A DNA stretch of 64,000 nt from positions 39,354 through 103,353 of the IMG/VR virus record IMGVR_UViG_3300032291_001296; one strand, given 5' to 3'. Position numbers and translations under genes: made by a program. The notes beneath the pieces are model-generated. The model was given only the letters and a program-made list of their open reading frames with translations, was not told the origin of the DNA and made no database searches. This DNA is from a virus. Positions 8,801 to 34,471 of this stretch are shown one piece after another. Each line of letters opens with the position of its first letter. Position 1 is the stretch's first letter.

Positions 8801-11800
8801 CGTTCCAGAAAGCTGTCATTAATTGAAGATCATGTTGTTTCAATGAATCCCAATTAATTTTTTCTTTAATAGAACTTCCTCCTGTTAAACGTCTATATAA
8901 AACTTCAAAGTTTGGATTAGCTTTAGCCATTGCTCTAAGTCTCTCAAACATCTCATCAACATTTACAGAATCATGTAATGAATTCATTAATGTAACAAAT
9001 GCTTGATCTGCAGGCATTAATACAACACCACCAACTGTAGAGATTTCAGGAATAATTTCACCTTTAACTATTTTAGTTTTAGGAAGTGTAGCTAATAAAA
9101 GTTTTACTACACGGTTTGCTTTTCTGAAAGAGTCAATCTTTCTAGCATCCATGTAATCTGATTTACCAGAATTGTCTTCATCGTTTAAGTTAAGCTCATC
9201 GTTCTCATCAAACTCAATAGCATAAGACTTAAGATGCTCTTCGTGTTTCTCAACAATAGCAGGCCAATCTTTTTTGATGTTATCAAATAAATCTTTTAAA
9301 GCATTGATCTCTGGAGTGATCTCTTTTTCTGTTTTTGTTTTATCATCTACTTGTGCATATAACTGATCTCTAAGTTCAAGAACACAATCTTCTAAAATCT
9401 CTTGTTTAAGTCTAGCATATAGCTGAGCTTTCTTAGGTTTCTCCACTTCAAAAAGACTTTGACTAGTTTGAGATAGATAAGACAATGTACTGTATGTCAT
9501 GTGTTGAATAATATCATGCAATTGTGTAGCAGGGATATTTTTCACTTTAAGTCTGAACTCAGACGTTTCATCACCTTCAGCAGATTCTATATCTTGAATA
9601 CCTTTATTAGCATAAGATAGTTTTGTTTCAAATGGATTGTATTGTGCATAGTATCCATTACCTATCTTAGCAAATAACTCTTTTGTATTTGTTTGAGCTT
9701 TTTCTCCTGTAAAGAAACCTTTAATGAAGTCAATCAACTCAGAGAACATTCTACCAATTAATCCTTTTGATGCCATTGGTTTACCTAACTTATCAGCAAG
9801 AACAGCATCTCTGAATTCCTCAGCAAGTTGTTCTTTAATTTGATCAGCTATAGCATATTTATATTCAACTCTTTCACCAGTCTCTCTATCTATAAATGAT
9901 CCTTTTCTTTTTCTGAACTCATCAAGAATAGCTTGTTTCTCTTCAGGACCAGCAAACATTTTCCATACAGCTTCAAACACCTCATGATAAGCAGTACCTA
10001 TCTCAGCATTTTCATATACGTATATAGCAGCATTATGAAACATACCCCAAGCTTCTCTACCATTAGTAGCTTGAATGATATTCTTCACTCTATATATAGG
10101 AACATTTGGCATCACCTTTTTAATAAACTCTCCCACCTTATTCCAGTTCTCTGGAACAATAGTATCCATTTTATTTGTGATAGCTAGTCTATATAGTTTT
10201 CTTGATCCTTTTGATTTAGGTTTAGCAGGTGTATTCCAGGTAACATCATCATCCTCTTCTATTTGTTCAGGAGTTATTTCTTCTTTACCTTCTATATCAG
10301 AAACTTCTTCTTCTACTACAGGAGCTGGATCAGCAACTGGAGGAAGATTTGGAACTTGTTGTTGTACAAGTTGTGGAGCTATTTTCTTTTCAATAGCTTT
10401 AATTAAAATGTTAGCTGCTTTGTTATGATCTACTTTCTTTTGTTCAGCTAAGTTAATAATAGCATCTGCAGACTCATCTAGATTGATATCCACTTCACCT
10501 TGCTCATTAGCAAAGTACATAACTGTTCCATAGTCAGTTTCTAATATATTAGGAGTGGCATCATCAAAATTAACAACTTCATCACTCACTGCAGCAGCTG
10601 GTTTAGCTACAGGAGCAGGTGCAACAGGTGCAGGTTCTGTAGCAGTTTGTGTAGCTGCAGGTTTATTAATTTTATTCTCAACAGCTTTTATTAAGTTACT
10701 AATTGCCCAGTTTTGAGCTTCCTCATCTGATTTTCCAACAGCAGTCTTTTTCTTTGCTAATTCAAGAATAGCATCTTCAGAAGCTTCTAAATCAAGTCCT
10801 ACGTTACCTTCTTCATCTACAGTGAATACGATATCTCCTAGATCAGGATTGTTAATTGTATTAGGTGTAATACCATCAAATGCAAATTCTTCTTTAGCTG
10901 TAGACTTATCTTGTGAAATAACTGGTTGAACAGCAACTACAGCTGGTTCTGGTTTAACATATGTTCTACCTGTACTATTCAATGTGAAATAGATTCCATC
11001 TCTATTAGTAGGTTGACTTTCTGTAATAGGTCTAAACTGTGTAGCTAATGGAAGTTCTTTATTATCTCTAGCTATAGTTAATTTACCATTAGCATCAGGA
11101 GCTTTATCTGATAATAAATAAGTTTGGTAGTTAGGCCATTCTCTATTTATAGGATTTCCTTCAGAGTCAATGCCTGTGATTTCATAGTATGGATTATTCC
11201 ATCCATCACTGTTCACTCTTAAAGAGTCTGTATTATTATACATCTCTTTAAGTAATGAAATGATAGCATCTTTATTATTTTGTAATGATGTAGGTGTAAA
11301 GTCAAAGTATTCTTTTGAATCTTTAGCAAGACCAGACATAAATAATTTTACAACTGGTTCACCATTATCATCTTTAACTGTTTCAAACCAGATGTTGTTA
11401 TATCCTGCAGGTTTTCTTTTTCCACTTTGATCTTTTGCAATACCCCAATAAACTACAGATTTTAACCAATTGAATAAGTCTTTAGAACTATCATTTATTT
11501 CACCATCTCTTAAAGCATTCTTTGTAATCTGATGCATTACATCAAATATAGTATTAGCTTCTTTGTCAGTGAATTTTCTATTGAATAATTTAGCTAGTCC
11601 TCTTCCAGGTATTCTTAAGAACACTCTACCAGTAGGAGTTGCAAAAGTTACTGATCCTTCAGATACAGATTCACCTGTTGTAGCCACCTCAACTACAGGA
11701 GATTTTCTTAATCCTGATTGAGTTACAAGACCTGCAGCTTGTGCAGAAGTTCTTGCTGCTTTATTTGTAACTTCATTTCCTGCTTGATCTTTATATGTAA

Positions 11801-18832: not shown

Positions 18833-21800
18833 TTATAAATTTTTAAGTGCTCTTACAATAGAGCTATTTTTATTATTCTTTTTAGATACCTTTCCACCAT
18901 TTTTTGCAGCAATCATTCCTGAAGCAATTATACCTGGTGTTGCATATAGTGGAGATGTTGTTCCACCTGCTTCTTGCATTTTATAATATTTTAATTTACC
19001 ATCAGCATCATAAACAGGAACTTCTTCTATTGTAGACTTACCACCATATATCTGTGGAATAGCTGGTCTATACCCAGGACCTTGAGTATGTATACCGTAT
19101 GATTGATCATATCCAAATTTTGGAAATAAATTACTACTAGCTAAGTATTTATTTTTAGTAGACTCAAATTGTAAATACTTATCAGCAATAGAAGCAACAG
19201 CAGCCTGTTGAGTTTCTTTTGTTCTAGATTTAGCTAATGCTTGTTTATTCATTTGATCAGCATACAATTGTATATTTGCTAAACGTTCTTGATTAACTTT
19301 ATTTCTATTACCACCAAATATCTTATCTTCAATAGCTTGGTTAGTTCTAAACTCTTCAGCATTCACTGCATTGTTTGCTAGGTATTTCTTACCTAATAAT
19401 CCTGCCATTGCTGCTGGGTTATATCCAAGACTTCTTTCAGCATCTCTAAAGTCTGCTGTGTTTTGATCTCTTACATTCTGATAGCTTACACGATATATAG
19501 GATCTAGATCATATCTCATAGTTTGAACTGGTACAGGCTCTTCTTGATTTTGAGCTATAGACATATATTCTCCTGCAAGCTGACGTGGATCAAATTCAAA
19601 AGGAAATCTATTTCTATTTAATTGACTAAGCATACCAAATATATCTAATGCTGTGTTTCCCTTATAAGGAACTACACCTATTTGAGATTTGTTTGCATTA
19701 ATTCCTTTATTACCTGTTGCTGTACCTAGAGTATTTAATTTTAAATCTGGTGCATTTTTGAAATGACTTCTAACACTAGCCATATACTGATCTGTTCTAG
19801 GACCATGGTATTCATCTTCATTACTTTGTAATATTTTTGCTACATCCTTACCTTCTAGAATATCTTGTACAGTAAGACCCATTTCTTTTGCTTTATTACT
19901 AAGACCATTTTCTCTAGTGGTTTTTTGAATTGCAGCAAGAGCTTCTTGAGGAAATGATTGATGATATAATTTTTGAAAACCAAGGGTAGATTTATTTTTC
20001 TTACCTTTTGTAGCTTGACTTTCATTATATAACTTTATGAAGTTATTATATTGCTCTTCTGTAATACTACCATCTGCAGGAGTAACAGTTGCACTATTCT
20101 GAGCTTTTCTTAAATAAGCACCAGACTTACCAACATATGGATTTTCTATTTCAGCATCTTTAGTAATAGGATCATAGTCATCTACTATCTTACCCTTACC
20201 TAATTCTTCAGCACTAATATTTTTTCCTCTAAGATATGACGCTTCTTTTTTAACCTCTTGTGTAGCATTCTGTAAGTCAGCCATTTTCTTTATGTAGTTT
20301 GCAAATTGCTGTTGTGTATCATCTGCACCTTGTCCCATTGCTTGAGCAGTGTTCAATAATAGCTTACCCCATTTATTATTAGGATCTGCTTTTTCTGCTA
20401 GTTCAGCAGCTTTAAGTTTAGTCTTAGCTGCTTTGTTTTGTGGTGCAGCAAAGCTAGCTATTATCTTTTTATAAGTTTGACCATCTTTTTCTTTAGCAAG
20501 TTTTATAAGATCTGCATCTCCTGTAGCTTCTGCTACATGTTTACTAAATGGTATGTTACCAAATATTACAGCTTCTGTAGATGGTTTACCTGTTTTAGGA
20601 TCTACTGATCCACCACTAGCTAATTGTACAACAGGTTCTTTTGTTTCAGCTTCTACCTGTGCTTTCATATGTGCACCACTAGCAGCTTGTCCTTCATAGT
20701 CTCCTTCTTCATTACCACCATAGCTAATACCAACACCACCTTTATCATGAGGTTTACCATGTATCATTACTATCTCACCAGATTCTGGTAAATAAGGATT
20801 TTGAGCTATAGTTTCAAGATGTCCACCCCAATGAGTTTGAAGTTGTCCACCCATAGCATAAGAAGACATTTCTCCACCATTCTCATATGTTTCCATAGCT
20901 CTTGCACTAGGAGGAGTGTACTCTCTTAAGTGTCCACCAGCTCTTAGCATATCAGCATCATGAGGAGGTTTTAATAAGTCTTTCACTTTGTGTTCACCAA
21001 ATGTAGCAATCACTTGTGGTTGCCAATCATTACTTACCCATCCACTATCTAAGTTTGCTCCATTCTCACCAACATGCATTGCATTTAATCCACTAGCAAA
21101 ACGATTACCAGTACTTAATCTTGAAATATATGAATTGTTTGCACCTATTCTACTTTTTTGGAAAGCTTGCTTACCTGGTTCTTTATCAAAGTAACCACCA
21201 ATCATTGTACCAGCCAATGATCCTACTGGTCCAAATAAACTACCAAGAGAACCACCAATTTGACTTCCTGCATTATTTCCAAATTGTCCACCTATAAAAG
21301 AATCAAAAGGGCTACCTTGTCCCATGTTACCCATGAAGCTTGTATCACCACTTCCACTTAATCCAGAATTAGCTTGTCCCCACCATTGTCCAAATCCACC
21401 ACCATTTGCATATGCTTTAACTTCATTAGGATCTTCTAGATCTGTATATGCAGTGTAATCAGGAGCATAAGTATTTTGTATTTCTGTTGGATTACCACCA
21501 ACCTTTGCACCATTTTGTCCAAAAAATACATCTGTACCTCTTCCTTGAGTATAACTTAGTTCATTAGCATTTTTAATATTCCTTCTAGCATCTACTCTAT
21601 TATATGTATTTTTTGGTTTTTCAGCAAATGCATCTGATACAGCAGCATCTTTAATCTTATCACTAACGTTAGCCCAAGTTTCTAATTTTCCAGTTAATTC
21701 TTTTTCTGCACTAAGATTTTGTAATCCTTTAACTGTACCAAAAAATACATTTCCAAAACCTTGTGTATTAAATCCTTGACCTTTATTTTGAGAAGCCCCA

Positions 21801-22210
21801 CCATTTGAATCTAAACCAAAAACACCATTGGAAAATTGTGAATTAGGATTGTTAGCTGGTATTGGATTTTGTTGTGCCCATTGATTGCCATAGTTTTGCA
21901 TAGCAAATGGATCACTATTTTGAAACCCACCCATATAATTTAATGAAGGATTGGAAACATTATAAGCACCAGGTGCAAAATTGTTACTAGGAGCAAAAGT
22001 ATTTTGGTATTGAGACTGTGGGTTCATTCCCCATTCTTGTACAAACCCAGGAGTAGAATAGCCAGTCTGTGCTTTACTAATTGCATGCTTTGTTTGCACA
22101 CCTTTGAATGCTTCAGGATGAGCTTTTTTAAATGCTGCTTCTGTAGGATACTTCTTGTAGAACTCCTTTTCAGATTTAACTCCTGCGATTTTTAAGATTT
22201 CTGATTTCAT
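18833..22210 (-). CDS. Putative virion cargo protein with repeated xxxGG motifs, 1125 aa
   Basis: Gly/Gln/Asn-rich. Contains HGKPHDKGGV...VEAE, a hydrophobic Gly-rich segment (GGSLGSLFGPVGSLAGTMIGG) and recurrent YANGG/LRAGG/YENGG/YAMGG/LASGG/AKNGG. Confidence 0.7.
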   Translation of the reverse strand: MKSEILKIAGVKSEKEFYKKYPTEAAFKKAHPEAFKGVQTKHAISKAQTGYSTPGFVQEWGMNPQSQYQNTFAPSNNFAPGAYNVSNPSLNYMGGFQNSDPFAMQNYGNQWAQQNPIPANNPNSQFSNGVFGLDSNGGASQNKGQGFNTQGFGNVFFGTVKGLQNLSAEKELTGKLETWANVSDKIKDAAVSDAFAEKPKNTYNRVDARRNIKNANELSYTQGRGTDVFFGQNGAKVGGNPTEIQNTYAPDYTAYTDLEDPNEVKAYANGGGFGQWWGQANSGLSGSGDTSFMGNMGQGSPFDSFIGGQFGNNAGSQIGGSLGSLFGPVGSLAGTMIGGYFDKEPGKQAFQKSRIGANNSYISRLSTGNRFASGLNAMHVGENGANLDSGWVSNDWQPQVIATFGEHKVKDLLKPPHDADMLRAGGHLREYTPPSARAMETYENGGEMSSYAMGGQLQTHWGGHLETIAQNPYLPESGEIVMIHGKPHDKGGVGISYGGNEEGDYEGQAASGAHMKAQVEAETKEPVVQLASGGSVDPKTGKPSTEAVIFGNIPFSKHVAEATGDADLIKLAKEKDGQTYKKIIASFAAPQNKAAKTKLKAAELAEKADPNNKWGKLLLNTAQAMGQGADDTQQQFANYIKKMADLQNATQEVKKEASYLRGKNISAEELGKGKIVDDYDPITKDAEIENPYVGKSGAYLRKAQNSATVTPADGSITEEQYNNFIKLYNESQATKGKKNKSTLGFQKLYHQSFPQEALAAIQKTTRENGLSNKAKEMGLTVQDILEGKDVAKILQSNEDEYHGPRTDQYMASVRSHFKNAPDLKLNTLGTATGNKGINANKSQIGVVPYKGNTALDIFGMLSQLNRNRFPFEFDPRQLAGEYMSIAQNQEEPVPVQTMRYDLDPIYRVSYQNVRDQNTADFRDAERSLGYNPAAMAGLLGKKYLANNAVNAEEFRTNQAIEDKIFGGNRNKVNQERLANIQLYADQMNKQALAKSRTKETQQAAVASIADKYLQFESTKNKYLASSNLFPKFGYDQSYGIHTQGPGYRPAIPQIYGGKSTIEEVPVYDADGKLKYYKMQEAGGTTSPLYATPGIIASGMIAAKNGGKVSKKNNKNSSIVRALKNL

Positions 22211-22211: not shown

Positions 22212-25200
22212 TTAATTATAATTATCTAACCAGCCTCCTGGTTGTTTGGTGTTATAGTTTGTAAAATTAGTTAATTGGTTTAACTTAACCAACTGATTTC
22301 CATCTTTTGCTTTGGTGACTTTACCACCATTTTGTTTAGAAGAGTTCTCTCTTATAGCTGATCTTCTAGCCCATTCAAAATTTTTCTGATACTCTTTATT
22401 AATTCTTTCGTTTTCTTTATATCCATATACACTTAATGCAGATATTGCAGAACCACCTCCACCAAGAACCAATGCAGTTTTCATTTTATCTTGAAGTTGT
22501 CTTAGATGATATTTTCTATCAATTAGCTCTAGTCTCATTTGAGTCATATCATCTACTTCTTTATCTAATTTTGCTTTAAACTCATCAAGTCTATTTATTT
22601 CATCTTTATATTTTTTATTATAAGCTTTTTCTGATAAAGCATCTATATCTTCAATTATTTTTTTTCTTTGCATTGATATTTCAGAAAGACGTTTAGTGGC
22701 TCTATCTATACCACCTTCTACATATCCTTTAATAGCTCTGAATTGTTTTGGTAAAAGTTCTAGATCAGAATTAATTTTTTTACTATTTAATACTTGTTCA
22801 GCTGCATCAGATCTTTGTTTAAAAGATTTTATTACATTTCTTGAATTTGATATTTTATATTGCATAGCATCTATTGCTTCATCAAAATCTCTAAGTGTTG
22901 ATGCATAAGTAGAATTACCATATCTACTAAATCTAGCATCTTTTTTTGCTACAGTTCTACCAGTCTCTTTTGCAAATTTATATAATGCTTCTTTACCTTC
23001 TTCACTATATGGAAGATTTTCAATTAACTGTGATGTATTTTCACTTGTGTTAGCTGCATCTTTAAGATGATCATCCATTTTTACATCGGATAGAATATCA
23101 CTTAATATTTTTCTTTCTTCTTCGGTGAAAAGCTTTTCTCCAGATACATTATGTTCAATAGAATTAATATATGACATTGGATCTGATATATCTAAATTCA
23201 TTCCAAGTTGCTTCATTGAAACAATATTATTATCTCCATGAAATGGATGTCCTAACATTACATGGTTTTGTCCTATACCATTGATAGCTCCACCACCAGC
23301 ACCAGGATGATATTCTTTAATTGCTGCTTCTATTTTATCAATTTTTCCTTTATCTACTTGTCTAGTTAATATAGAATTATTGATGTAGTAATCATTAATA
23401 GCAAGTTGCATTCTTTCTGGATCAGCTGCTACTAATGCTTTATTACCAATGAAATTAATTTTATCTAATATCTCTTTATTTGTTTCAACATTAGATAACT
23501 GTTCTAATGGAAACTGATGTCCAATAGATCCTTTACTTCCTACTAAAGATTTAACAAACTGTTCTTGTCCTTGAGAAACAACACTTGGTTTACCATAGTT
23601 AATTAATGCATCTATCTTATTTATATGGTGATCTTTAGTAGATTCATATGCATCAACAACTGACTTAGTAGTAGGGTTAGTCATGTCAACTAATTCTTGA
23701 GATGAATAAGGAATCTTTAATTCAGATTTACTCTTTATTGATTTTCTAACTGCTGCATAATATTCATCTGGAGCAACTTGTTTAAATAATTCTTCAGCTC
23801 TTTCTCCTATAGCTTTACCACCTTTTTCTTGAATAACATTTATATCAATTGGTGCAACTCCTTCAGCTGCTCCAGGAATGTTATGAAGATCTGCAAGTCC
23901 TTTGTTTCCTACTGGAGGATTAGCTTTAGCAAATTTATCATATTGAGATTGACTCATAATCACATCATAGTCACCAATTATATGAGGAACATTTGTTTCA
24001 GCAACATTCTTAGCACTACCAAATACTTTAGCTCCAGGGATTTGAGTTTCTATAAAATCAATATTCTTTTTAACAGTAGAAACATATTCAGGAGTAGCTT
24101 CAGGTAACACTGCGTTATCTACAGTTTTTACAACTTTATCTCCTTCTACTGTATGTATAATATTTTCATTAGGAACAGATGTAGATATAGGAAACTTTTC
24201 TCCTGTTGCTAAATCCGTAATGTCTGTACTACCTGTTCTTAATCCTAGAGATGTATCTTTTCCACTTTGAACAAGACCTTCACCATTCACTCTAAACTGA
24301 CCTGCAACATCTATTCTTTTTTGAAGTTTATTTATTCTATCATTCAATTGATTAAGTTCATCAATTGATGCTTTTGTTTTTAATTTATTAGCTTTTGCTT
24401 CTATGGCCCATTTTTTCTGACGAAGTTTTCCAACTTCTTCACTATACTTTGCATATTCTGGACCTGTATATAAAGCCCTCTCAGCAACTTCAACAGCATC
24501 TATTTTAGGCTGTATACTTTTTATCTCACCTGATATTACAGCACCCATATCATTAACTAAAGTTTTACCTTTAGTTAAAATAGGAGCAGTAACTTCACTA
24601 GCTTTAGCTAAAGCTTGACTACCTTTATTTGCAACATATCCAAGTCCTTCTCCTACACCTTTTGAAATAGGTCCTGCAGCAGGTAGTATTTCTAATGCAT
24701 CCATTCCTACTGATTCAGCTCCTTCCCAAGTTGGTCTATTTGCCCAGTTTGCTACATCAGGTCCAATATTCATTAAACCATGTGTAGCAAATCCTGCATT
24801 GATTGCATTACCTAAATTTAATCCAGCAATAGTATTTCCTCCTATCACTGCATCAGCTGCAAGAGAATTACCTATCATTGTTGCATATGGTGCAGCAGCA
24901 GATATTCCAGCAGGAATTAATGGTGCAGCTGCATATCCAAGTGTACCTAAATAAGCAGCATCATATGGATTTGCTGATTTAGGATTGTTGATTACACTTT
25001 GTAATAAGTTATCTCTCACCTCACCTTTTTGATATAAGTCTGTTAAAGCAGTAAAAGGAGTAAGTGCAGATTGACCAAGTTTACTTAATGTTGAATCAGG
25101 AGTGTATTGGCTAATTGCTCCATGCTGTTGATTATACTGATCATACAATATACGTTCTTGTTCTTCTTTAGGAAGAGCATTGAATTTCTTTTGTGCTTCA

Positions 25201-27497
25201 GCTTCAGCTTTTGCTTTTTCAGCAGCCACCTTGTTTGAATATTTTACATCTTTAACTATTGCCTCATCTCCTTTAGCTGCCATTTTACTAGCATTAGGAA
25301 TAACATCATTTACAATAGTATTAGGAGTTTCACGTATGTTAACTTTTTTACTTCTAGCTTCAGTATCATTTTTCAACTTATCTAAAAATGCTATATGTTC
25401 AGGAGAAATATTAATTTTAGGATTTTCTTGTTGTTGATTTTTAAAATTATCAATAAAGTTACCTCTACTTCTATTTTTATTTCCTGGACTCCATGGATAA
25501 GTAGTTTCATCTGTAGTGGTTTGCATACCATTAGCAGCTACAGGATATTCTGTAAACTTAGTTGCTCCTGGGAATACATGTGTTCCTGTATTAGGATAAA
25601 CCATTCTTGGATGTCCTTTATCTGGAACTACATATAATGGTATATCACCATATCCATGAGTAGCCATTGTGTTTCCTGATATTTCTGTATCTTGCCATGG
25701 ATAAGCCCATTGTCCTCTATCATCTTTGATAGGTCCTCCATCTTTATTCAATGGGATATCACCAATATTTGGTTTCCAGTTTTGATTTTTATACATTTTG
25801 TTGAAGCTATTACTAGCATCTTGTCCCATGTCTCTCAACATAGCTTCTCTATCAAATCTATTTCCAGGAAGAGTAAATTTAGGATCCCCCATATAATCAT
25901 CTACATCTGAGATGTATCCTTCAGCATTTGGTCTAGTTCCTTTATATTCTTGTACACCATACCATTGTTCAGGTTGTTTTTCTCCAAATTTTTGTAACTC
26001 TTCTTTACCTAAACCTTCTTTACCTGCATAATAAACAAGTTCATCTTTACTGTTATTGAAGAACTCAGGATTAGTTTTTATTCCAGCTTCTTGTGAAATC
26101 AAATACTTATCCCATTCTTGTTTAGCACTTTCTGCTTTTTTTGCAGAATTAGCAATTTCTTCATCACTGTATTTCCAACGTTCACCGTAGTCTTCTATAT
26201 CTTTCATCAAGTTTTGATGACGTTTTGATTCTAATTTTGCAAGATCTTTATAGATATTATTTTCATCTATAACTTTAATATAATCTTTTGTTGCTTTATT
26301 AAAATCAGACATTGGAAGATCAGCATCAGTAACTAATTTATAATTAGGTCCTTGGAACTTTGGTTTTCTTTTAAAGAAATTAAAAAATCCTTGCTCATGC
26401 AATCCTTGTCTTAATTCAGGAGCTACACTTGTTTTTATACTTCTTAGTTCTGGACCAAACTCTGCTACTGCTGGTAACATACTTAATGCATCTAATCCAG
26501 CACCTACATAATTACCTTCATATAAATCAGGACCCATTTTTGTTGCACCTTGCATTGCACCTATTATTGCACCTTCAGGAGTAAATAATCCTGGAGACAT
26601 TAATGGAGATCTATAAGCTTCTTGCATACTATTCTGTACCCAATCTTTAGCAGCTTGTTCTTCTGATTGTTTTTGAGCTAATTCATTTTGTTGTTTACCA
26701 GATAGTTTTTTAATTTCTTTAAGTGTAGAAGTTTTTGTATTATCTTTTTCTACAGTTTTAACTTCTTTACCTTTACCTTTAGATTGAATCTTACGATTCA
26801 TTGTATCATTAATAAGACTTCTTACAGAAGGAAGATTTTCACCTTGTTGACTAATAGTCTTAGGTCTCCAATCTAATCCATTCTGATAGTATCTCATCTC
26901 TTCACCATTCTGTGCACTAGCTTTTGTTTTCTTTCCACCAGGTCCATTATAAGGAGCAGGATTAATTGTACGTGCATATGTAAACCCTGGAGTTCCTGGA
27001 ATAGAACCACCCATTCGCATTGCATCAGGATTATCATCAACACCTACTACTTCCCAATTATCATTAAAGACAATTAAACTACCATGTTTAGTTTTTACCT
27101 TCTTTGCTCCAATTTTTTTAGCTTGAGCAGTTATAGTTTTCCAATCAGGAACCCAGCGACCTTCTTTATTATAGTTTCCAGCATCATCTATTACTGGAGT
27201 AGAAGAATTTACTTTACCACCTCCTTGAAATCTTCCACCCCATGCAGGAGAATAATCTCTACCTTTAGTGTTATATCCTTCTCCTACATATCCTTCTGGT
27301 AAAGATACAGAAGTATCATTATAGTTCTCTTGGTATTCTTGCATTGTTCCACCATCAGCGTATTGATCTAACCAACCACCATTCTTCATATTAACATCAC
27401 TCTTTCCACAATTGTGGCATACGTGCATATCTTTTTGACTAGAATCAGATTTGTTCCAACTCCATCCACAACTTGGACATGTTACTTTTCCTTTCAT
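22212..27497 (-). CDS. Modular virion protein, 1761 aa: N-terminal Zn ribbon, xxGG-punctuated scaffold, putative Pol-beta-superfamily nucleotidyltransferase domain
   Basis: CPSC...CHNC at the N-terminus. GGWLDQY near the start and GGWLDNY at the end. VFGS-x14-DYD plus a downstream PIDINV (about 24030-23840). Confidence 0.7.
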   Translation of the reverse strand: MKGKVTCPSCGWSWNKSDSSQKDMHVCHNCGKSDVNMKNGGWLDQYADGGTMQEYQENYNDTSVSLPEGYVGEGYNTKGRDYSPAWGGRFQGGGKVNSSTPVIDDAGNYNKEGRWVPDWKTITAQAKKIGAKKVKTKHGSLIVFNDNWEVVGVDDNPDAMRMGGSIPGTPGFTYARTINPAPYNGPGGKKTKASAQNGEEMRYYQNGLDWRPKTISQQGENLPSVRSLINDTMNRKIQSKGKGKEVKTVEKDNTKTSTLKEIKKLSGKQQNELAQKQSEEQAAKDWVQNSMQEAYRSPLMSPGLFTPEGAIIGAMQGATKMGPDLYEGNYVGAGLDALSMLPAVAEFGPELRSIKTSVAPELRQGLHEQGFFNFFKRKPKFQGPNYKLVTDADLPMSDFNKATKDYIKVIDENNIYKDLAKLESKRHQNLMKDIEDYGERWKYSDEEIANSAKKAESAKQEWDKYLISQEAGIKTNPEFFNNSKDELVYYAGKEGLGKEELQKFGEKQPEQWYGVQEYKGTRPNAEGYISDVDDYMGDPKFTLPGNRFDREAMLRDMGQDASNSFNKMYKNQNWKPNIGDIPLNKDGGPIKDDRGQWAYPWQDTEISGNTMATHGYGDIPLYVVPDKGHPRMVYPNTGTHVFPGATKFTEYPVAANGMQTTTDETTYPWSPGNKNRSRGNFIDNFKNQQQENPKINISPEHIAFLDKLKNDTEARSKKVNIRETPNTIVNDVIPNASKMAAKGDEAIVKDVKYSNKVAAEKAKAEAEAQKKFNALPKEEQERILYDQYNQQHGAISQYTPDSTLSKLGQSALTPFTALTDLYQKGEVRDNLLQSVINNPKSANPYDAAYLGTLGYAAAPLIPAGISAAAPYATMIGNSLAADAVIGGNTIAGLNLGNAINAGFATHGLMNIGPDVANWANRPTWEGAESVGMDALEILPAAGPISKGVGEGLGYVANKGSQALAKASEVTAPILTKGKTLVNDMGAVISGEIKSIQPKIDAVEVAERALYTGPEYAKYSEEVGKLRQKKWAIEAKANKLKTKASIDELNQLNDRINKLQKRIDVAGQFRVNGEGLVQSGKDTSLGLRTGSTDITDLATGEKFPISTSVPNENIIHTVEGDKVVKTVDNAVLPEATPEYVSTVKKNIDFIETQIPGAKVFGSAKNVAETNVPHIIGDYDVIMSQSQYDKFAKANPPVGNKGLADLHNIPGAAEGVAPIDINVIQEKGGKAIGERAEELFKQVAPDEYYAAVRKSIKSKSELKIPYSSQELVDMTNPTTKSVVDAYESTKDHHINKIDALINYGKPSVVSQGQEQFVKSLVGSKGSIGHQFPLEQLSNVETNKEILDKINFIGNKALVAADPERMQLAINDYYINNSILTRQVDKGKIDKIEAAIKEYHPGAGGGAINGIGQNHVMLGHPFHGDNNIVSMKQLGMNLDISDPMSYINSIEHNVSGEKLFTEEERKILSDILSDVKMDDHLKDAANTSENTSQLIENLPYSEEGKEALYKFAKETGRTVAKKDARFSRYGNSTYASTLRDFDEAIDAMQYKISNSRNVIKSFKQRSDAAEQVLNSKKINSDLELLPKQFRAIKGYVEGGIDRATKRLSEISMQRKKIIEDIDALSEKAYNKKYKDEINRLDEFKAKLDKEVDDMTQMRLELIDRKYHLRQLQDKMKTALVLGGGGSAISALSVYGYKENERINKEYQKNFEWARRSAIRENSSKQNGGKVTKAKDGNQLVKLNQLTNFTNYNTKQPGGWLDNYN

Positions 27498-28363
27498 TAT
27501 TTGTAAGAGATTTGTGCAGGAGCCACTAAGAATTGACTCACTAAATGCGTTGTACTACTATTATCAAGAATGTGTCTTATCTTTAATTCTTTTGCTCTTA
27601 GCGTTGCTTTCTTAAAGCTTCTAGGACCATAGTCCATATTAGCTTGATTGATCACTTTATCTATTGAAAGACTCTCGCATGATGTATTGAATAATGGAAC
27701 TTGAGAGCTTATCTCTGCAGCCCAGAATGTATTATACTGATAGAAGTTATCACTCTTAGTATAAGTGATAGTTTTACTTTCGGTGTTAAAGATAGGATAT
27801 TTATTGTAAGCTTGCAAATTATGTAATGGTTTTGCTACAAGTTCTAATACACCAGAACTCTGTTGTCCATTATATAGAATAGCTTTATTAAACCATTTAT
27901 CGTTTGTTTCTATTCTAGCATTATCATTAAATACACCATCAGGTATAGGAAGATATTCATATGCTTTAGTATAGTCTTGTACATTCTGAAGAATTTCATC
28001 TTGATACTTATACGCAAATGGATATTCAATAATGTATGGCTCTATTGTTCCATAGAATATATTATATATCTGTGTATTAGTTAGATGTCTCCATAGACAT
28101 CCTGTAACAGACTGTGTGTATTTTATACTTGCATATTCTGTAATATTGAAATCTTTTAGTTTTATTGTAAATGAATTATTACACTTACCTGTAGATTTTA
28201 ATATCACTGCATATAAACTATCATCAACAGTATAACTCACTCCTTGAATTAATGCTTTCTTAGGAACATTCTCAGCTATAATGTTTCCATAGATATCCGT
28301 AATGGTAAATGGTCCAACATTTGGTCCAGTCTGTACTAATTTTATGGTTATAACTTTTGTCAT
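27497..28363 (-). CDS. C-terminal part of tail stabilization (muzzle) protein with an added N-terminal small beta-module
   Basis: LWRH..YNxFYG..PYIIEY..FNKAILYNGQQSSG resembles the C-terminus of crAss-like stabilization proteins. The first ~65 aa align by eye with the 103-aa ORF at 38062-38373. Confidence 0.65.
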   Translation of the reverse strand: MTKVITIKLVQTGPNVGPFTITDIYGNIIAENVPKKALIQGVSYTVDDSLYAVILKSTGKCNNSFTIKLKDFNITEYASIKYTQSVTGCLWRHLTNTQIYNIFYGTIEPYIIEYPFAYKYQDEILQNVQDYTKAYEYLPIPDGVFNDNARIETNDKWFNKAILYNGQQSSGVLELVAKPLHNLQAYNKYPIFNTESKTITYTKSDNFYQYNTFWAAEISSQVPLFNTSCESLSIDKVINQANMDYGPRSFKKATLRAKELKIRHILDNSSTTHLVSQFLVAPAQISYK

Positions 28364-28364
28364 A

Positions 28365-29927
28365 TTAAGGAGTGGTTGTAGTAGTGGTTGTAGTAGAAGA
28401 ACTTGATGTACTAGTAGTAGTTGTAGTTCCAGTAATTGAACTAACTACGCAACTACCTACTTGAGTTGCAGAACTTATAGGTAATATATCAATATTTATT
28501 CCTAAATCAAGTAATACATACGGATAAATTTTAATAACTGTATATAGATTTCCAAGTTCATCAGTTACGTATATTTCACAATTACATTCATATAATGATC
28601 TAGCTGCTACAGTTCCAATATTAAGATCAATCTCTATTGTTCCTGTTGCATACTCATATTGTGTTATATAATAATCTGATGTAATTCCATCTTGAGTAAC
28701 TACAATAAGTTTACCATCTGTTGTATATAACATGTTAGTTGTAGAAATTCTATCAGCTTGTAAACTAAATACAGTTGTATCAACTGCTGTTCCTCCTGTT
28801 ACATCTAATTCATTTACAGTGTTTGGAGATACAGAAGTGTCTGTTGAAATTAATATACCATCATTCTTAGCAACTATTCCATATCCTGGAGTGTATCCTA
28901 CAGGTAAAGCAATTGTTCCACTAGATGTTGCACTAAATGGAGATAGATCTATAGTCCATTTTTTTATGTTAGTATCAATACTCCATAAGTAGTTAGCAGT
29001 CATTGCTATTCCTAATGATGAAACATATCCTGGTACATTTAGTTCGTTGGATTGAGGTATAAATAATGGATTAGAATAGTATATACTATCATCTGATGAG
29101 AATAAAATTCCACAACATTTAGGTACATCTGGTACTAATGTAGTGGTAGTGGTAGTTGTTCCACAATCACAATTTATTATATTTACAATTACTCCTCCTG
29201 AAATTTCATAAACATAAGTTAATAATGGAGAATATGCAAAATAGAAACCATCAGGAACAAATGTACAATCTGTTCCATCACCATAATAAACTATATTACC
29301 AATTTGTAATTCATCAATTGTAATATTATTAGCATAACCATTAAATATAGTTAATGTACTATCATCTTCATTACTTGGACTATTTATATAAGTTATAACA
29401 GGAATTGCATCACATGCTTCTTGTTCACTACCAGAAAATATTACTTCTGGATCTGTTCCTAATGTATATCCTTCTACAAATACAAATGGTGTTAATAAAC
29501 TAGAAGGTCTTTGACATATTGTTGTTGTTGTAGTAGCAGGAACTGTAATTACTGCTGTACCATCTAAACTACAATCTGTTATAATAATTGTTCCATCTAT
29601 ACCACAACCTAATGTTGTTGTACTTGTAGTTGTTCTAGGAGAAGGATAAAATGTTGTTGTAGAAGTAGTTGTAGGAGGTGTTTTATCCATCACTCCAGCA
29701 ATAGCTTGAAATCCACCAGCTTGAGTATCATCACAACATCCATTAAGTCCTGAATAAAAGAAATTATTTTCTCCTATATAGAAATTAGGTAGATAACTAT
29801 GATAACTTATCCATTTTCTAGTATTTAAATTATATGACATAGTCCAACTCTTATTACAGAAATAATCTGGATCATTGAGATAAACCTGAGTACGTATAAC
29901 TGTTTTTATTTTATTATCTTCAGCCAT
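28365..29927 (-). CDS. Middle part of tail stabilization protein fused to Thr-linked Cys-rich modules and a propeller-like domain
   Basis: Begins RTQVYLNDPDYFCNKSWTMSYNLNTRKWISYHSYLPNFY, a muzzle-like blade. Several poly-Thr tracts follow, and it ends TTTTTTTTP. Confidence 0.65.
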   Translation of the reverse strand: MAEDNKIKTVIRTQVYLNDPDYFCNKSWTMSYNLNTRKWISYHSYLPNFYIGENNFFYSGLNGCCDDTQAGGFQAIAGVMDKTPPTTTSTTTFYPSPRTTTSTTTLGCGIDGTIIITDCSLDGTAVITVPATTTTTICQRPSSLLTPFVFVEGYTLGTDPEVIFSGSEQEACDAIPVITYINSPSNEDDSTLTIFNGYANNITIDELQIGNIVYYGDGTDCTFVPDGFYFAYSPLLTYVYEISGGVIVNIINCDCGTTTTTTTLVPDVPKCCGILFSSDDSIYYSNPLFIPQSNELNVPGYVSSLGIAMTANYLWSIDTNIKKWTIDLSPFSATSSGTIALPVGYTPGYGIVAKNDGILISTDTSVSPNTVNELDVTGGTAVDTTVFSLQADRISTTNMLYTTDGKLIVVTQDGITSDYYITQYEYATGTIEIDLNIGTVAARSLYECNCEIYVTDELGNLYTVIKIYPYVLLDLGINIDILPISSATQVGSCVVSSITGTTTTTSTSSSSTTTTTTTTP

Positions 29928-29938
29928 TGTATTAATCT

Positions 29939-32900
29939 TTATGAAGTAGTGGTAGTTGTTGTTGTAGGAGCAATCATTTCATAAACTGTCTCAACATAGA
30001 ACTCTTTTGTTATAGGATCATATTTAACATCTTTGTCAATAGGAATATAATCTAGTTTAGTAATAATAACTCTTTCGAATTTACTATCATATACTCCATG
30101 TAATCCAATACCATTAAAGTTATTATCTGTATCAACTTCTGGAAAATATCTTAATATTTCAAACGATAAGTGGTCTGTCATAAATCTATTTACACCAGAT
30201 CCAAATCCACCTATCTCTGCCACTTTAGTTCCTTCAATTAAGAATATCTGTCCTCTCTTAGCATCTATTGTTACTTGTCCTTGTGGAATCTTTAATAACA
30301 TCTTATTCTGACTTCCTACATATCCAAGATCTGTTTCAGCAAAATCAATTGGTGTAGTAGAGAATAATGCAGGAGCACCAAGAAAAGCAGCTTGTGGATT
30401 ACTAGTATCCATTGTCAATAAGTTATTGTACATCAATGTCTTATTTTCAAATCTAGCAAGTATAGCTTTGTTCTGAATACCATCTAATGATACAAGCTTT
30501 CCATAATTTTGAGGAAAATCGTATAGAGATAGTGGAGCATAGCTTAACCAGTTATTTACTCTTACATCAGCATTATTTGATTGTGGATCAGAATACACCA
30601 CCCTAAATGGATAGTGTGTAAAACATAATTGATCATTCCAATCTGCTGGTAAATGCGAGAATGAATTTTCTGTATTCTGTCTAGAAAATGTTACATTATA
30701 ATAATATGTATTATCATAAGATATTGATGTAAACTCTTGCTGTAACCAATCATCAGGAATACCTGTAGATACGTGTGGCCAGAAGTTTCCTTCTCTATCA
30801 TTAAATGCTTGTCTAAGATCTACATTATAATTAGACTCACAATAGAAACTAGGAATACCATATGCAAATAGATAAAACTTACCATCATAGAAAGTTCTTA
30901 ATGTTCCAGCTATAGGATCTACTTGAGCTGGTATTTTTGCAGGATCATTATAACAATCAAAACTATGTGCTTTAATTGATATAATATTTATCATATTATG
31001 ATAACTATTCAAAATAGATCTAGCAGAGTGCCAGAATTTTGGATAACCAACATTACCTATCTCATCATAGAATATATCACTATCATCAGGAGCATTCACT
31101 CTATTATCTAAAAAGAATGGAAGTTTTGTTTTGTATGCAAACTTATTTATAAATGTATCACCACCAAATGCAACATCGTTAGTATAAGAACTTACATTAA
31201 ACATTCTTTGGAATCCTGTATCAATTGTCTCATAAGAATATATTTGTCCCCATTGACCAGGGAATATATTTTTTAATGATGCATAATAAGATACCACTTT
31301 AATATCTCTTTCTTTCTCTGGAGTATTACAATAATTTAATTTAGTATCTGGTGTAATATTAGTATCACATGTACCAGCTCCTCCAATAATAAATCTTGAA
31401 TATTCAGAAATTAAAGAATCACCATTACTATCTAAAAGACTTTCTGTTTTATTAGGAAATGGAAGAGGTTCTACTGTAAGAGTATTTCTTTTATCTATTG
31501 TTTTTGTATATACAGATGATTCTCTTTGATAATTATTTATATTTTTATCATCTCCAATGTTTTGAACACCAGGAATTAAATATGCTTTTAAATCAAGTGC
31601 TCTTTGTTTAATACCAGTTAGATTTCCTATTGTAACATTATTACCAATTGGTGCAGAATAATTATAACTAGCTACAGAGTTATATGAGTATGCATAATTT
31701 TTTCTTGTAATACCATTAATATAAATAGTTAAGTATGCTTGGTATGCTGTAAATACAGCTGTTATATCTGAACCTCCAATATTAAATGAAGCATCTAATG
31801 CATCTTGTTGAGCTTCTCTAGAAAGAAGTCTGTATTTAGCATTTCCTTTAACAGGAACAAAATGAGCTTTTCCTCCACCAAACATTACATTTTCTAACTT
31901 AAGAATATCTCCTAAGAAAGGTTGTGAGAATGATGTATCAGGAGAATTAAATACTTGTCTATACGCAGATTCAGGTTTATCAATAGCTGGTAATGGTATA
32001 TTTCCACCACAAATATTTGCTATCTTAGATCTTCTACTCCATGCATTACATGGAGGAGAAAGACCAACATTAACAAATTTTGGAGGAAGTTCTCCAAGAG
32101 CTTGTGGACCAGTCCACACAGGTGCTATAGAACAGTCACTTTGTGCACTTCCAGCATAATCACCAGTTGAGTCATTTAAATAATATGGCCATGTTCCAAT
32201 AGTAAGTTTTTGAACTACAATACCACCACAAGCATCACTTTGAGGAGAATTACATAAACTACATGTTCCATATGGAGAATAAGGAACTCTTCCAAATTTT
32301 AATGTTGTTAATGAAGCATTATCGCATGACCATTCTGTATCAGCCCACATTTTAAAAATATCTATTGGTGCATTTCTATTATATAATATAGTATTGTATT
32401 CACCAGGACCTATACATGCTTTACCAGTTAAATACTTTGGTCTTGTTAAAGAACAAAACTCATAGTTTTGACCAGCAACCATAGGAACACAACTAACCAC
32501 CTTTCCTGTTATAGCATCTGTATATTCATATGTACCTGTTTCTTTACATTGTACTATCCAAACTCTAGATTGACCTAATACAGTGTATGAATTAGAACTT
32601 GTATTTATAAAAGGATCTTCATTAAGATCATTGTATGGATAGTTTGGATAATAAAGAGTTTGATCTTCTCTTGTATATGTTCCTACATTACGTAACATCC
32701 CTTTACCTACAATAGATTTATTTGTATTTCTATTACCTCTTACAATTTTAAATCCAGCTATATTATCTTTCTGCTCTTGTGTTAGAGAAGAAGTTTGTAT
32801 TAGAGATTGTACCTGAGCTATATTCACTTTAACACCAATTGGATATACAGCATTACTTTGAATATCAGGATCAGGTTCAAATCCTGGAGTGAGTGCATAC

Positions 32901-34471
32901 ACTGGACTCTCAAATATAGGACTTACAAGAACATCTGGAAACTTATGATGTCTAATAGGTTGACCTGCTAAGTCTCCCCATACATCTACATTACAAGGAT
33001 AAGTTTCGGTTGATTCCCAATAAGCAAATTCACCATACTGATGTGGTGTAGCATTACCTATAGCATCTCCTTGAGCTTGTCCTAATACTGTTGCTGTATT
33101 ATATATCTTCCAATAAGGACTATATCCAATTCCTGATGAAGGATCAATGTATGTAGGTTCACCTATAAAGTCAGCATTTGTATCTGGAATATCTGGATAT
33201 TGTGTATCATTATAACTTAATACTCTTCCAGGAATATGAAAACCATCTGTTTGTTTTCCATTCTTTAATAGGAATACAATTTCAAATGCATACACTTCAT
33301 CACGTAGATATCCACGTAGGTTTGTAGCATTAAATTCATTAGCATAGTTTTCTGTAGAAGGGATTCTATATGTTTCCCATAAAAGATCTACTTTAGATGC
33401 TATTTGCTGATAATTAATTCTATCTATAGATGTAAGATTGTCCCACATAAGCACATCTTGTGCTGCAGTAAGATCTTGAGCTATATCATAATATGGATAC
33501 TTCTCAAATATATCCGAGATAGATAATTTAATTGCTGTTTGATTTTGTCCTGTATATGTTATAGTGTCAACTTGATTCTCAATTGAATATGTACCAACTA
33601 GTTCTACAGATGTAATAGCATTGACTGTTTTAATAACAGCTACATTATAATAGGTAAATAATCCTGATGTATCTAAATTAGTAATAGTTAACTGAATAGA
33701 TCTACCCACCTTATAGTCAAATAGAGCAGTGGTTAACTGCGTATCAGCCATAGGTGTAGGATTGGTAACAGAATAATATGATGTATAAGGATTACCAGAT
33801 GCATCAGAATATTGTATAGCAAACTGATAAGTACCTGCAGTAACATCTCCACCAGTGAATATATCAGTTACTTCAAGTTGAGGTATATTAAAGTTAGGTT
33901 GTATTTTAAGTTGATTACAATCTAATTCATCTGTATATAAAGGATTACAAGAATCAGAGTAAACAGATTGTACATAAGGAATGTTTTCAATATCTAGATA
34001 TCTTCTAGAGTTATATCCATCTGTCCAATATATTTGTGTAGTACAATTTCCAATCTTATGTACTACTTTTGGTATAGGATGATTTATATTAAAATTTAAA
34101 CATACAGCATTAACTAATGTATGATAGATACAATCATTATTATCCATATATCCTATTTCTGAGCCACCTGTAGTAGGATTAGCTAAGAAAAATATATGTT
34201 TATTTTTTTCATTAATAAAATGAGTACCTATTAAAGAATATCCTGGAGGGAACTGTACACAGAACTCATTACCTTGTTCATTCTGATAGTTAACAGAACT
34301 AGAATCAAAGTTTTCTAAAGCAGCATTTAATGCATAGGTTAGTTCTCCTGGCTTAACTTGGTTTAATGTATTATCCATGTTAAGTCCAGAAACAGCAACA
34401 TTGTATTCTGGTTTAATGTTACTTTGATTTACCCCAAGTATATTTTTAATTTGATTTAATTCGTCTGCCAT
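29939..34471 (-). CDS. Tail stabilization (muzzle) protein, main part, 1510 aa
   Basis: GLNMD..YALNA, IYWTDG.N, GTYQFAIQY, RGYLRDEVYAFEIV, IRHHKFP, FGGDTFI, GVYDSKFERVIITK, all resembling the crAss-like stabilization protein. Follows the tail tubular gene. Confidence 0.8.
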   Translation of the reverse strand: MADELNQIKNILGVNQSNIKPEYNVAVSGLNMDNTLNQVKPGELTYALNAALENFDSSSVNYQNEQGNEFCVQFPPGYSLIGTHFINEKNKHIFFLANPTTGGSEIGYMDNNDCIYHTLVNAVCLNFNINHPIPKVVHKIGNCTTQIYWTDGYNSRRYLDIENIPYVQSVYSDSCNPLYTDELDCNQLKIQPNFNIPQLEVTDIFTGGDVTAGTYQFAIQYSDASGNPYTSYYSVTNPTPMADTQLTTALFDYKVGRSIQLTITNLDTSGLFTYYNVAVIKTVNAITSVELVGTYSIENQVDTITYTGQNQTAIKLSISDIFEKYPYYDIAQDLTAAQDVLMWDNLTSIDRINYQQIASKVDLLWETYRIPSTENYANEFNATNLRGYLRDEVYAFEIVFLLKNGKQTDGFHIPGRVLSYNDTQYPDIPDTNADFIGEPTYIDPSSGIGYSPYWKIYNTATVLGQAQGDAIGNATPHQYGEFAYWESTETYPCNVDVWGDLAGQPIRHHKFPDVLVSPIFESPVYALTPGFEPDPDIQSNAVYPIGVKVNIAQVQSLIQTSSLTQEQKDNIAGFKIVRGNRNTNKSIVGKGMLRNVGTYTREDQTLYYPNYPYNDLNEDPFINTSSNSYTVLGQSRVWIVQCKETGTYEYTDAITGKVVSCVPMVAGQNYEFCSLTRPKYLTGKACIGPGEYNTILYNRNAPIDIFKMWADTEWSCDNASLTTLKFGRVPYSPYGTCSLCNSPQSDACGGIVVQKLTIGTWPYYLNDSTGDYAGSAQSDCSIAPVWTGPQALGELPPKFVNVGLSPPCNAWSRRSKIANICGGNIPLPAIDKPESAYRQVFNSPDTSFSQPFLGDILKLENVMFGGGKAHFVPVKGNAKYRLLSREAQQDALDASFNIGGSDITAVFTAYQAYLTIYINGITRKNYAYSYNSVASYNYSAPIGNNVTIGNLTGIKQRALDLKAYLIPGVQNIGDDKNINNYQRESSVYTKTIDKRNTLTVEPLPFPNKTESLLDSNGDSLISEYSRFIIGGAGTCDTNITPDTKLNYCNTPEKERDIKVVSYYASLKNIFPGQWGQIYSYETIDTGFQRMFNVSSYTNDVAFGGDTFINKFAYKTKLPFFLDNRVNAPDDSDIFYDEIGNVGYPKFWHSARSILNSYHNMINIISIKAHSFDCYNDPAKIPAQVDPIAGTLRTFYDGKFYLFAYGIPSFYCESNYNVDLRQAFNDREGNFWPHVSTGIPDDWLQQEFTSISYDNTYYYNVTFSRQNTENSFSHLPADWNDQLCFTHYPFRVVYSDPQSNNADVRVNNWLSYAPLSLYDFPQNYGKLVSLDGIQNKAILARFENKTLMYNNLLTMDTSNPQAAFLGAPALFSTTPIDFAETDLGYVGSQNKMLLKIPQGQVTIDAKRGQIFLIEGTKVAEIGGFGSGVNRFMTDHLSFEILRYFPEVDTDNNFNGIGLHGVYDSKFERVIITKLDYIPIDKDVKYDPITKEFYVETVYEMIAPTTTTTTTS

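Follow-up and report, generated by a model that had tools for sequence, protein, structure and literature searches.

A putative cargo protein family of crAss-like phages with a conserved scaffold, exchangeable inserts and a candidate nucleotidyltransferase unit

What is the role of a 1761-amino acid (aa) phage protein in which short conserved motifs bracket large inserts that differ from one relative to the next? This question is raised by P0001, a gene on the minus strand of an IMG/VR virus record (IMGVR_UViG_3300032291_001296; 103,353 bp, CheckV completeness 89%). The window analysed here is the 64,000-nucleotide stretch from positions 39,354 to 103,353 of that record, and all coordinates refer to it (Table 1). 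Judged from its hallmark genes, which all lie on one strand, the source is an uncultured crAss-like phage: the muzzle (PF25731, E 6e-36), ring proteins 1 and 2, the major capsid protein (MCP; PF23898) and a P22-like portal protein are encoded on the same strand in the window. A first-pass annotation, made from the sequence alone, had described P0001 as a cassette protein that delivers swappable enzymes. The conserved scaffold, the swappable inserts and the nucleotidyltransferase (NTase) payload of that proposal were recovered in our analysis. Its claim of an undescribed system was too strong, because both polyvalent proteins (PMC5512222) and crAss cargo proteins (PMC10172136) have already been described. 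The reading that we favour, with moderate confidence, is that P0001 belongs to a lineage-specific crAss-like cargo family, the members of which would be packaged and ejected carriers, with the conserved blocks serving loading and ejection and the slots between them holding exchangeable enzymes.

A conserved five-block scaffold with variable slots

A search of 5.8 billion proteins yielded 160 relatives comparable in length to P0001 and 692 that are shorter. Most of these relatives cover just 3-7% of P0001, at 60-80% identity. When 119 homologues were mapped on P0001, about 100 of them covered residues 1-100, 161-220, 581-660 and 1721-1761, whereas the stretches between these regions were common to 18-47 of the 119. 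This contrast in coverage indicates that the scaffold motifs are not due to chance. All of the motifs quoted in the first-pass annotation were found where it had placed them on the 1761-aa translation, among them GGWLDQY at residue 40, GGWLDNY at residue 1754, RDYSPAWGG at residues 80-88, GFTYART at residue 171 and DDRGQWAYP at residue 592.

Hidden Markov models (HMMs) of the individual blocks were built from bare proteins of 226-300 aa, in which the blocks are contiguous. With these models, blocks B, C, D and E were all detected in 211 of the 240 relatives analysed, and the order A, B, C, C2, D, E was collinear. The bare forms are complete proteins, and the AlphaFold2 (AF2) model of the bare scaffold (21 sequences) is almost wholly disordered (predicted local distance difference test, pLDDT, 43), with some beta structure in block D only. 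A GGWLDxY-type motif is present within the last 14 aa of 213 of the 240 family members. Since the number of GGWLDxY copies is two to three regardless of protein length or insert number, this motif appears to belong to the frame and not to delimit each insert. Neither P0001 nor the bare scaffolds were matched in sequence searches of Pfam, PHROG and PDB, and the 103-kb genome contains neither a second scaffold copy nor another GGWLDxY protein.

One of the scaffold motifs also occurs in the capsid protein. The N-terminus of the MCP (open reading frame (ORF) 46794-48356) is MAIQTIPGLTGFTYARVAS, with IPGxxGFTYAR at residues 6-16 (48309-48341, minus strand), as in block C. This motif is located upstream of the Pfam capsid match, which starts from residue 25, and is identical in five related genomes. 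Its presence in both proteins may reflect a shared docking partner or a shared protease or processing signal. A phmmer search of the MCP against PDB did not match the crAss001 capsid chain.

The gaps between the blocks are highly variable in length. In the relatives, the A-B, B-C, C-D and D-E gaps span 0-804, 0-847, 0-1360 and 0-1184 aa, respectively, and the corresponding gaps of P0001 are 1, 70, 388 and 1082 aa long. Three of the four gaps are filled in P0001, which is about sevenfold larger than the basic form. Because single-linkage clustering merged all inserts into one group through shared short motifs, the 362 inserts of at least 80 aa were clustered with a 60% reciprocal-coverage rule. 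This yielded about 93 clusters, including 62 singletons, and several clusters were found in more than one slot; the NTase unit described below, for example, resides in the D-E slot in 23 proteins and in the C-D slot in three. The 240 relatives and their insert clusters thus bear out the earlier proposal that short blocks bracket large inserts and that homologues, far from being uniform in length, vary in slot content.

Domains recognized by Pfam in the slots of the relatives include ADPrib_exo_Tox upstream of the main block B, DUF6973 in B-C, ART-PolyVal and a DUF6782 metallopeptidase-like domain in C-D (a metallopeptidase-like insert is found in relative P0003), and YkuD between B and D, while LysM plus Amidase_2 follow block E. 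The precomputed Pfam column of the relatives adds PG_binding_1 (PF01471) and PF14542 (source name, GNAT acetyltransferase). In P0001 itself, the B-C slot holds a small module that is common to few relatives (P0142, P0138 and P0189). The variable domain of the C-D slot belongs to a family common to eight of the 37 proteins that bear the same pre-module segment, and a search of the ESM Atlas with residues 346-585 returned no usable match. An origin of the inserts from inteins or homing elements was unsupported, as no Hint or endonuclease domain was detected with Pfam.

Two DAL..LP motifs are present in P0001, and the first-pass annotation had taken each as the end of a stretch with which an insert begins. 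The second motif, GMDALEILP, lies at the edge of the NTase-bearing unit, where homology to other NTase-unit proteins starts. The first, GLDALSMLP, does not open an insert but ends a 78-aa segment that is situated inside the C-D insert and is conserved in 38 proteins. Upstream of GLDALSMLP, all of the 1332 protein pairs compared are alike (mean identity, 72%); over the 150 aa downstream, 174 of the 1332 pairs are alike and at least six families are represented. In these comparisons, the DAL..LP motif marks a sharp conserved-to-variable, recombination-type junction of the polymorphic-toxin kind. The junction itself is real, but the suggested resemblance to pre-toxin translocation motifs is not supported. 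A Pfam search of P0001 detected no pre-toxin domain (PT-VENN, PT-HINT, PT-TG, etc.), and the motif is not conserved in stand-alone NTase relatives: a relaxed DAL..LP motif was found in 13 of 116 NTase-unit relatives, mostly without scaffold blocks, versus five expected by chance.

The candidate nucleotidyltransferase unit and an ART-like second domain

By homology, the D-E insert of P0001 holds a complete unit of about 770 aa that is also part of many other large proteins without the scaffold. The unit contains, in order, a coil, a beta subdomain, the NTase, a helical region, a domain with an ADP-ribosyltransferase (ART)-like fold, another coil and a hydrophobic tail. In a library of 1.84 billion proteins, its 471-aa core is represented by 173 sequences at 50% identity; among the 150 core matches listed, several are fragmentary, and those of full length are proteins of about 790-3260 aa. 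A scaffold block is present in 18 of 142 further NTase-unit proteins. An HMM of the unit found no copy in the 10-kb flanks of the 80 scaffold loci compared below, indicating that the unit is not a universal neighbour gene.

The signature of Pol-beta NTases, hG[GS] with [DE]h[DE]h 9-14 residues further on, is present in P0001 as KVFGS (residues 1157-1161)-x14-DYDV (1176-1179), and the third carboxylate, D1218, is located in PIDINV (1216-1221). The corresponding codons are at 24015-24020 (G1160-S1161), 23964-23972 (D1176/D1178) and 23844-23846 (D1218). In an alignment of 175 sequences, with identities down to about 25% and an occupancy of 93% in the catalytic columns, conservation is 93% for G1160, 91% for S1161, 93% for D1176, 91% for D1178 and 87% for D1218, the last being Asp in 152 and Glu in six of the sequences. 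H1172 is also conserved, as are D1282, K1288 and K1290/H1291 in the helical region.

The AF2 model of residues 1040-1600 (28-sequence alignment) has a pLDDT of 84.5, exceeding 90 in the core region, and a predicted template modelling score (pTM) of 0.83. In model numbering, the core comprises helix 97-113, strand 118-120, helix 122-129, strand 139-143, helix 144-153 and further strands. The GS dipeptide follows strand 1, DxD lies on strand 2, and the third Asp lies on a later strand (178-183). The list obtained from PDB with Foldseek consists mostly of Pol-beta NTases, including MenT1, CCA-adding enzymes, CdnD, CutA, ANT, Cid1, OAS1 and TUT7, with a best E-value of 9e-3 and a probability of 0.97-0.99 for MenT1. 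The nearest solved folds to residues ~1090-1370 are MenT/AbiEii (DUF1814), ANT(2'')-Ia (PDB 8an4, 8an5, 4xje, 5cfu) and JHP933 (4ok0), with Z 5.0-6.2 and 136-157 aligned residues. VIA-align yielded Z 6.0-6.2 for MenT1 (155 aa; root-mean-square deviation (rmsd), 4.0-4.3), 5.5-5.8 for ANT(2'')-Ia, 5.0 for JHP933, 4.7 for LnuA and 4.5 for TglT, and all structural Z-scores are below 8, in the range flagged by the method as possibly a mere common arrangement and too low to secure a fold match by themselves. The motif conservation backs the NTase fold with evidence that is independent of these scores. We therefore consider it very likely that a Pol-beta NTase fold is present, as the first-pass annotation had read from the hGS..DxD motif and a third Asp, and likely, from the conserved residues, that the enzyme is catalytically competent.

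P0001 shares with MenT/AbiEii and ANT(2'')-Ia the hG[GS] and DxD motifs and a third Asp on the following strand. However, identity to these proteins is 8-13%, and the NTase of P0001 is embedded in the larger unit together with the extra beta subdomain and the ART-like domain; unlike MenT/AbiEii, it has no toxin-antitoxin partner. The resemblance to DUF1814/AbiEii/MenT is structural only, and by sequence the NTase represents an unclassified family. Nine distant NTase-unit relatives yielded nothing usable against Pfam and PHROGs, and two such relatives had no match in 50,697 GenBank phage records.

The earlier reading of this insert had recognized the NTase and missed a second folded domain, at residues 1370-1557, for which the model suggests an ART-like fold. 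In a ranked fold search with model residues 331-518, which was independent of Foldseek, most matches were ART-fold proteins, all with weak scores: the RES toxin VPA0770 (Z 5.4), diphtheria-toxin homologues (5.0-5.2) and the anti-CRISPR protein 6kyf (5.1), as well as MbcT, ParT, Tpt1, PARPs and pertussis toxin. The BFVD list for this domain likewise contains ART-PolyVal-like proteins with weak E-values (0.045-0.23). Arg1379 on the first strand is 93% conserved, and the Gly-rich loop 1402-1416 is conserved. The top match, for residues 1370-1551 (~22845-23390), was residues 1419-1605 of the cyanophage A4 pre-ejectosome chain 9k3a_B (Z 6.3, 138 aa, rmsd 4.2, 6% identity), and podovirus ejection proteins may share the second domain. 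No usable match was obtained from the ESM Atlas for residues 1365-1560.

The segment at the end of the unit (residues 1674-1692) had been annotated as a transmembrane-like tail. This designation was not upheld: the segment is uncharged and only moderately hydrophobic, and both this segment and the stretch at residues 847-913 have a Kyte-Doolittle 19-aa mean of 1.2-1.3, below the usual membrane-helix cut-off of 1.6.

Table 1. Positions of P0001, its blocks, inserts and domains, and the adjacent genes in the 64,000-nucleotide window
Feature	Residues of P0001	Position in window	Strand	Basis
P0001 gene, 1761 aa, single open frame	1-1761	22212-27497	-	ORF call
Block A, four-Cys zinc-ribbon-like (CPSCG..CHNCG); missing in some relatives	1-36	27390-27497	-	
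Block B, GGWLDQY ... RDYSPAWGG; block HMM E 1e-30	38-91	27225-27386	-	
B-C slot insert, small module	92-161	27015-27224	-	
Blocks C and C2, SIPGTPGFTYART ... YYQNGLDWRPKTIS	162-216	26850-27014	-	
Conserved pre-module segment, ends GLDALSMLP (junction 1)	266-342	26472-26702	-	
GLDALSMLP	334-342	26472-26498	-	
C-D slot variable domain, without family or fold match	343-586	25740-26471	-	
Block D, DDRGQWAYP ... FPGATKFTEYP; sole scaffold part with predicted (beta) structure	587-653	25539-25739	-	
Gly/Ala-rich uncharged stretch, single Asp, moderately hydrophobic	847-913	24759-24959	-	
GMDALEILP (junction 2), N-terminal edge of the NTase-bearing unit	931-939	24681-24707	-	
Conserved unit of ~770 aa	~934-1700	22398-24698	-	Homology span
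Pol-beta-type NTase core (predicted)	1138-1260	23718-24086	-	AF2 model and conservation
Second folded domain, ART-like fold (predicted)	1370-1557	22827-23390	-	AF2 model
Long helical/coiled-coil stretch (1583-1670), then Gly-rich moderately hydrophobic segment (1674-1692)	1583-1692	22422-22751	-	
Block E, C-terminal tag LTNFTNYNTKQPGGWLDNYN	1736-1761	22215-22292	-	
Upstream 288-aa gene, fixed left neighbour, matches C-terminal end of muzzle proteins		27497-28363	-	Profile match
Downstream 1125-aa cargo-like gene, fixed right neighbour		18833-22210	-	Locus comparison

Gene neighbourhood and comparison with known systems

The P0001 start codon and the stop codon of the 288-aa gene upstream share 1 nt, and the downstream gene begins 1 nt past the P0001 stop. 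IMG/VR contains 328 relatives, and 80 loci were used for a comparison. The gene order muzzle, 288-aa gene, scaffold gene, 1125-like gene, 862-like gene and RNA polymerase-like gene was found in all 80 loci, with the outer genes cut off in those that reach a contig end. The ORF at the fixed scaffold position encodes 173-1896 aa. This invariant place, beside the muzzle and upstream of the virion RNA polymerase, puts P0001 in the cargo block.

The neighbouring genes have several features of their own. The muzzle of the window is split into three ORFs of 1510, 520 and 288 aa (27497-34471, minus strand), the two shorter of which align with the C-terminal end of PHROG profiles for the full-length muzzle. 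The 1510-aa and 520-aa ORFs are fused in many related loci; the 288-aa piece is separate in every locus and constant in length (287-290 aa in 68 related loci). On the other side, P0001 is followed by ORFs of 1125, 862, 4430 and more than 947 aa. Conservation of the 1125-aa protein is highest over its first ~45 residues (about 22076-22210; 0.8 versus 0.25-0.7 elsewhere, 26 relatives), and in six loci (L029, L032-L035 and L041) the scaffold and 1125-like genes are fused as one ORF of 1160-1389 aa. The 4430-aa ORF (2853-16145, minus strand) has no Pfam match and contains DFDID at residue 3486 and HEVFE at residue 2054. We take DFDID to be the catalytic signature of the crAss-like virion RNA polymerase, and this ORF presumably encodes a virion RNA polymerase in a fused form that is roughly double the size of phi14:2 gp66.

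The MCP is 93-97% identical across five genomes (L084-L088 versus L001, L003, L039, L011 and L023), and the scaffold family therefore varies within a clade that is narrow as judged by the capsid. In the same comparison, the muzzle is 57-76% identical and the cargo and polymerase proteins are 25-71% identical; by this measure, the cargo block evolves far faster than the capsid shell. In locus L039, the neighbouring genes are 49-80% identical to those of the window, yet the scaffold gene encodes 226 aa and lacks the zinc ribbon. Two scaffold relatives were detected on contigs of 59 and 112 kb (L089 and L090) assigned to metagenome-assembled genomes of Sediminibacterium sp. (Bacteroidota), with no further match in a search of 185,579 species genomes. 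Both contigs are probably of phage origin and were grouped by binning with a freshwater Bacteroidota host, although binning alone makes this a weak host link.

In crAss001, the genes after the muzzle (gp45, gp46, gp47, gp49 and gp50) encode cargo proteins and polymerase subunits that were detected in virions by mass spectrometry, and cargo protein C1, part of which is extended, runs from the capsid by way of the portal into the tail and is anchored by short structured segments to the portal, to the tail rings and probably also to the muzzle (PMC10172136). P0001 occupies the same place as C1 (gp45) and C2 (gp46) (Bayfield et al. 2023), after the muzzle and before the virion RNA polymerase genes, and the layout of C1 matches that of short conserved blocks in a disordered chain. 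By this analogy of gene position, P0001 is probably packaged in the virion. However, Pfam, PHROG and PDB sequence searches with P0001, the bare scaffolds and the module alignment detected no similarity to C1 and C2, and these proteins have not been reported to carry enzymes or variable inserts. In addition, the scaffold family was found in one environmental clade only, unlike C1 and C2.

Polyvalent proteins are large, multidomain and encoded beside virion genes, and it has been proposed that they accompany the DNA into the host (Iyer, Burroughs, Anand, de Souza and Aravind 2017, PMC5512222). Their domains include ARTs (among them ART-PolyVal), zincin peptidases, GNATs, Pol-beta NTases and lysozymes, with Pol-beta NTase domains found only in the polyvalent proteins of conjugative elements (PMC5512222). 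P0001 resembles them in holding at least two effector-type domains (the predicted NTase and ART-like folds) and two further inserts, and its relatives carry ART-PolyVal. It differs in that the carrier is a small disordered five-block scaffold with slots, and not MuF, a portal protein or DarA, and in that the NTase unit matches no Pfam family. P0001 is best read as a crAss-lineage form of polyvalent proteins, in which case a phage-borne Pol-beta NTase extends the known picture.

Similarities to two other systems are more limited. As in polymorphic toxins (CdiA, Rhs and MuF-type), a conserved segment ends at a sharp motif that is followed by unrelated domains. In contrast, the variable parts of P0001 are internal and not at the C-terminal tip, there is no immunity gene, the neighbours are conserved cargo genes, and the context is that of a phage virion. 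The internal proteins and Alt of phage T4 are packed in the head and injected, their locus is variable among related phages, and a short peptide serves as the address. The candidate address of P0001 differs in consisting of several internal and terminal blocks and not an N-terminal decapeptide, and its payloads are contained within one polypeptide.

Proposed function and alternative explanations

According to the reading that we favour, the basic form of the family is the largely disordered protein of 226-300 aa with its five short blocks, which would pack it into the particle and thread the chain out through the tail. The four gaps would accept foreign domains that are swapped between phages by recombination. 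In P0001, the D-E slot holds the predicted NTase, with its GS, DxD and Asp residues intact, and the ART-like domain, flanked by coiled coils and Gly/Ala stretches. The protein may be ejected ahead of or with the DNA, like crAss001 C1, C2 and the virion RNA polymerase, and infection would then open with the transfer of a nucleotide by the enzyme to some target in the host. Going by the analogy to MenT/AbiEii, this target would most likely be an RNA 3' end such as that of tRNA, or else a protein or small molecule, and host translation or defence would be blunted as a result.

Several observations weigh against this reading. None of the Pfam, PHROG and PDB sequence searches supports the NTase assignment, for which the structural Z-scores are low, and none of 34 diverse members matched the Pfam NTase families, including PF08843 (DUF1814/AbiEii/MenT), even at E<=1. 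The second domain has no conserved catalytic Glu, as no Glu or Gln reaches 80% conservation (Q1430, 74%; E1461, 56%), and hhalign revealed no relation between this domain and the ART-PolyVal domains of the relatives (probability 0.4%). Peptidoglycan-acting payloads in the relatives suggest that some inserts work in the envelope and not in the cytoplasm. P0001 was unmatched in a tblastn search of 50,697 GenBank phage records, in which no cultured relative was found. Finally, presence in the virion is argued from gene position, and the target and reaction from pure analogy.

A bolder version of the favoured reading, which we regard as tentative and doubtful, holds that the five blocks constitute a portable address system. 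Short linear tags, namely the terminal GGWLDxY motifs, an IPGxxGFTYAR tag taken from or common to the MCP N-terminus, and the small beta unit, would dock the unfolded chain in the head and tail, so that any enzyme placed between them would be packed and injected. The unit with the NTase and the ART-like domain would then represent a new family of two-enzyme effectors, which would chemically mark an RNA or protein of the host within seconds of the onset of infection.

The alternative that survives best, although we judge it unlikely, is that P0001 is mainly a structural ejection protein forming an ejectosome or channel, like T7 gp14-16 or cyanophage A4 gp26-29, that its blocks, coiled coils and Gly/Ala-rich stretches make up or line a conduit across the envelope, and that its enzymes aid envelope penetration or are incidental and do not act in the cytoplasm. 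The crAss001 structure led its authors to expect a transmembrane channel formed by gp45 and gp46 (PMC10172136). P0001 has uncharged Gly/Ala-rich stretches and long helices, and the best structural match of its second domain is the A4 pre-ejectosome segment. The payloads of its relatives, moreover, include LysM plus Amidase_2, YkuD and PG_binding_1, as in A4 gp28 (PMC12002296). However, the bare forms hold the same position in otherwise similar phages without these helical or hydrophobic elements, which are therefore not needed for ejection. In addition, the hydrophobic stretches fall under the usual membrane-helix threshold, and it is not obvious what ARTs, or an NTase whose catalytic residues are conserved, would do in the envelope.

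Somewhat less likely still is the possibility that P0001 is a polyprotein, in which the blocks (GGWLDxY, xxGG and IPGxxGFTYAR) are maturation-protease sites that free each insert before or after packaging. The blocks flank every insert, and the IPGxxGFTYAR motif of block C matches the extreme N-terminus of the MCP. This sharing may be likened to T4, where a single protease processes both the capsid protein and the targeting peptides of the internal proteins. Proteolytic processing has been proposed for polyvalent proteins by Iyer et al. (PMC5512222), and the metallopeptidase-like insert of P0003 fits such a scheme. Nevertheless, blocks of 35-80 aa that keep their order even in bare forms with nothing to release are not what protease sites would lead one to expect, nor is a GGWLDxY copy number that stays constant whatever the length or number of the inserts, and no protease was identified among the window proteins.

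It is improbable that P0001 remains unpackaged and acts as a late intracellular protein, such as an assembly factor or a superinfection or defence modulator encoded in a structural operon. The scaffold has no detectable similarity to crAss001 C1 and C2 or, in Pfam, PHROG and PDB, to any virion protein family, as this explanation would allow. However, the gene is tightly coupled at its invariant position in the 80 loci, a disordered and motif-rich chain suits passage through a narrow tail channel, and payloads such as ART-PolyVal and cell-wall hydrolases are characteristic of proteins that are packaged (PMC5512222). Equally improbable is that the NTase-like domain has no catalytic activity and serves for structure or binding, since all five catalytic positions are 87-93% conserved over the 175 sequences and D1282, K1288 and K1290/H1291 are further invariant polar residues, even though there is no sequence family match and the structural Z is just 5-6.

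The crAss-like phages are very abundant, and little is known of what they inject besides DNA and RNA polymerase. The locus described here is one hot spot at which phages with 93-97% identical MCPs carry anything from a 226-aa bare protein to proteins of 1761 aa (the window) and 1896 aa (L063). If the blocks are indeed loading tags, they would provide a testable rule for packing proteins into a podovirus-like particle, together with a natural catalogue of early effectors, most of which have no known family. The NTase unit forms 173 clusters at 50% identity, matches no model in Pfam or PHROG and may represent a new enzyme family in phage-host conflict.

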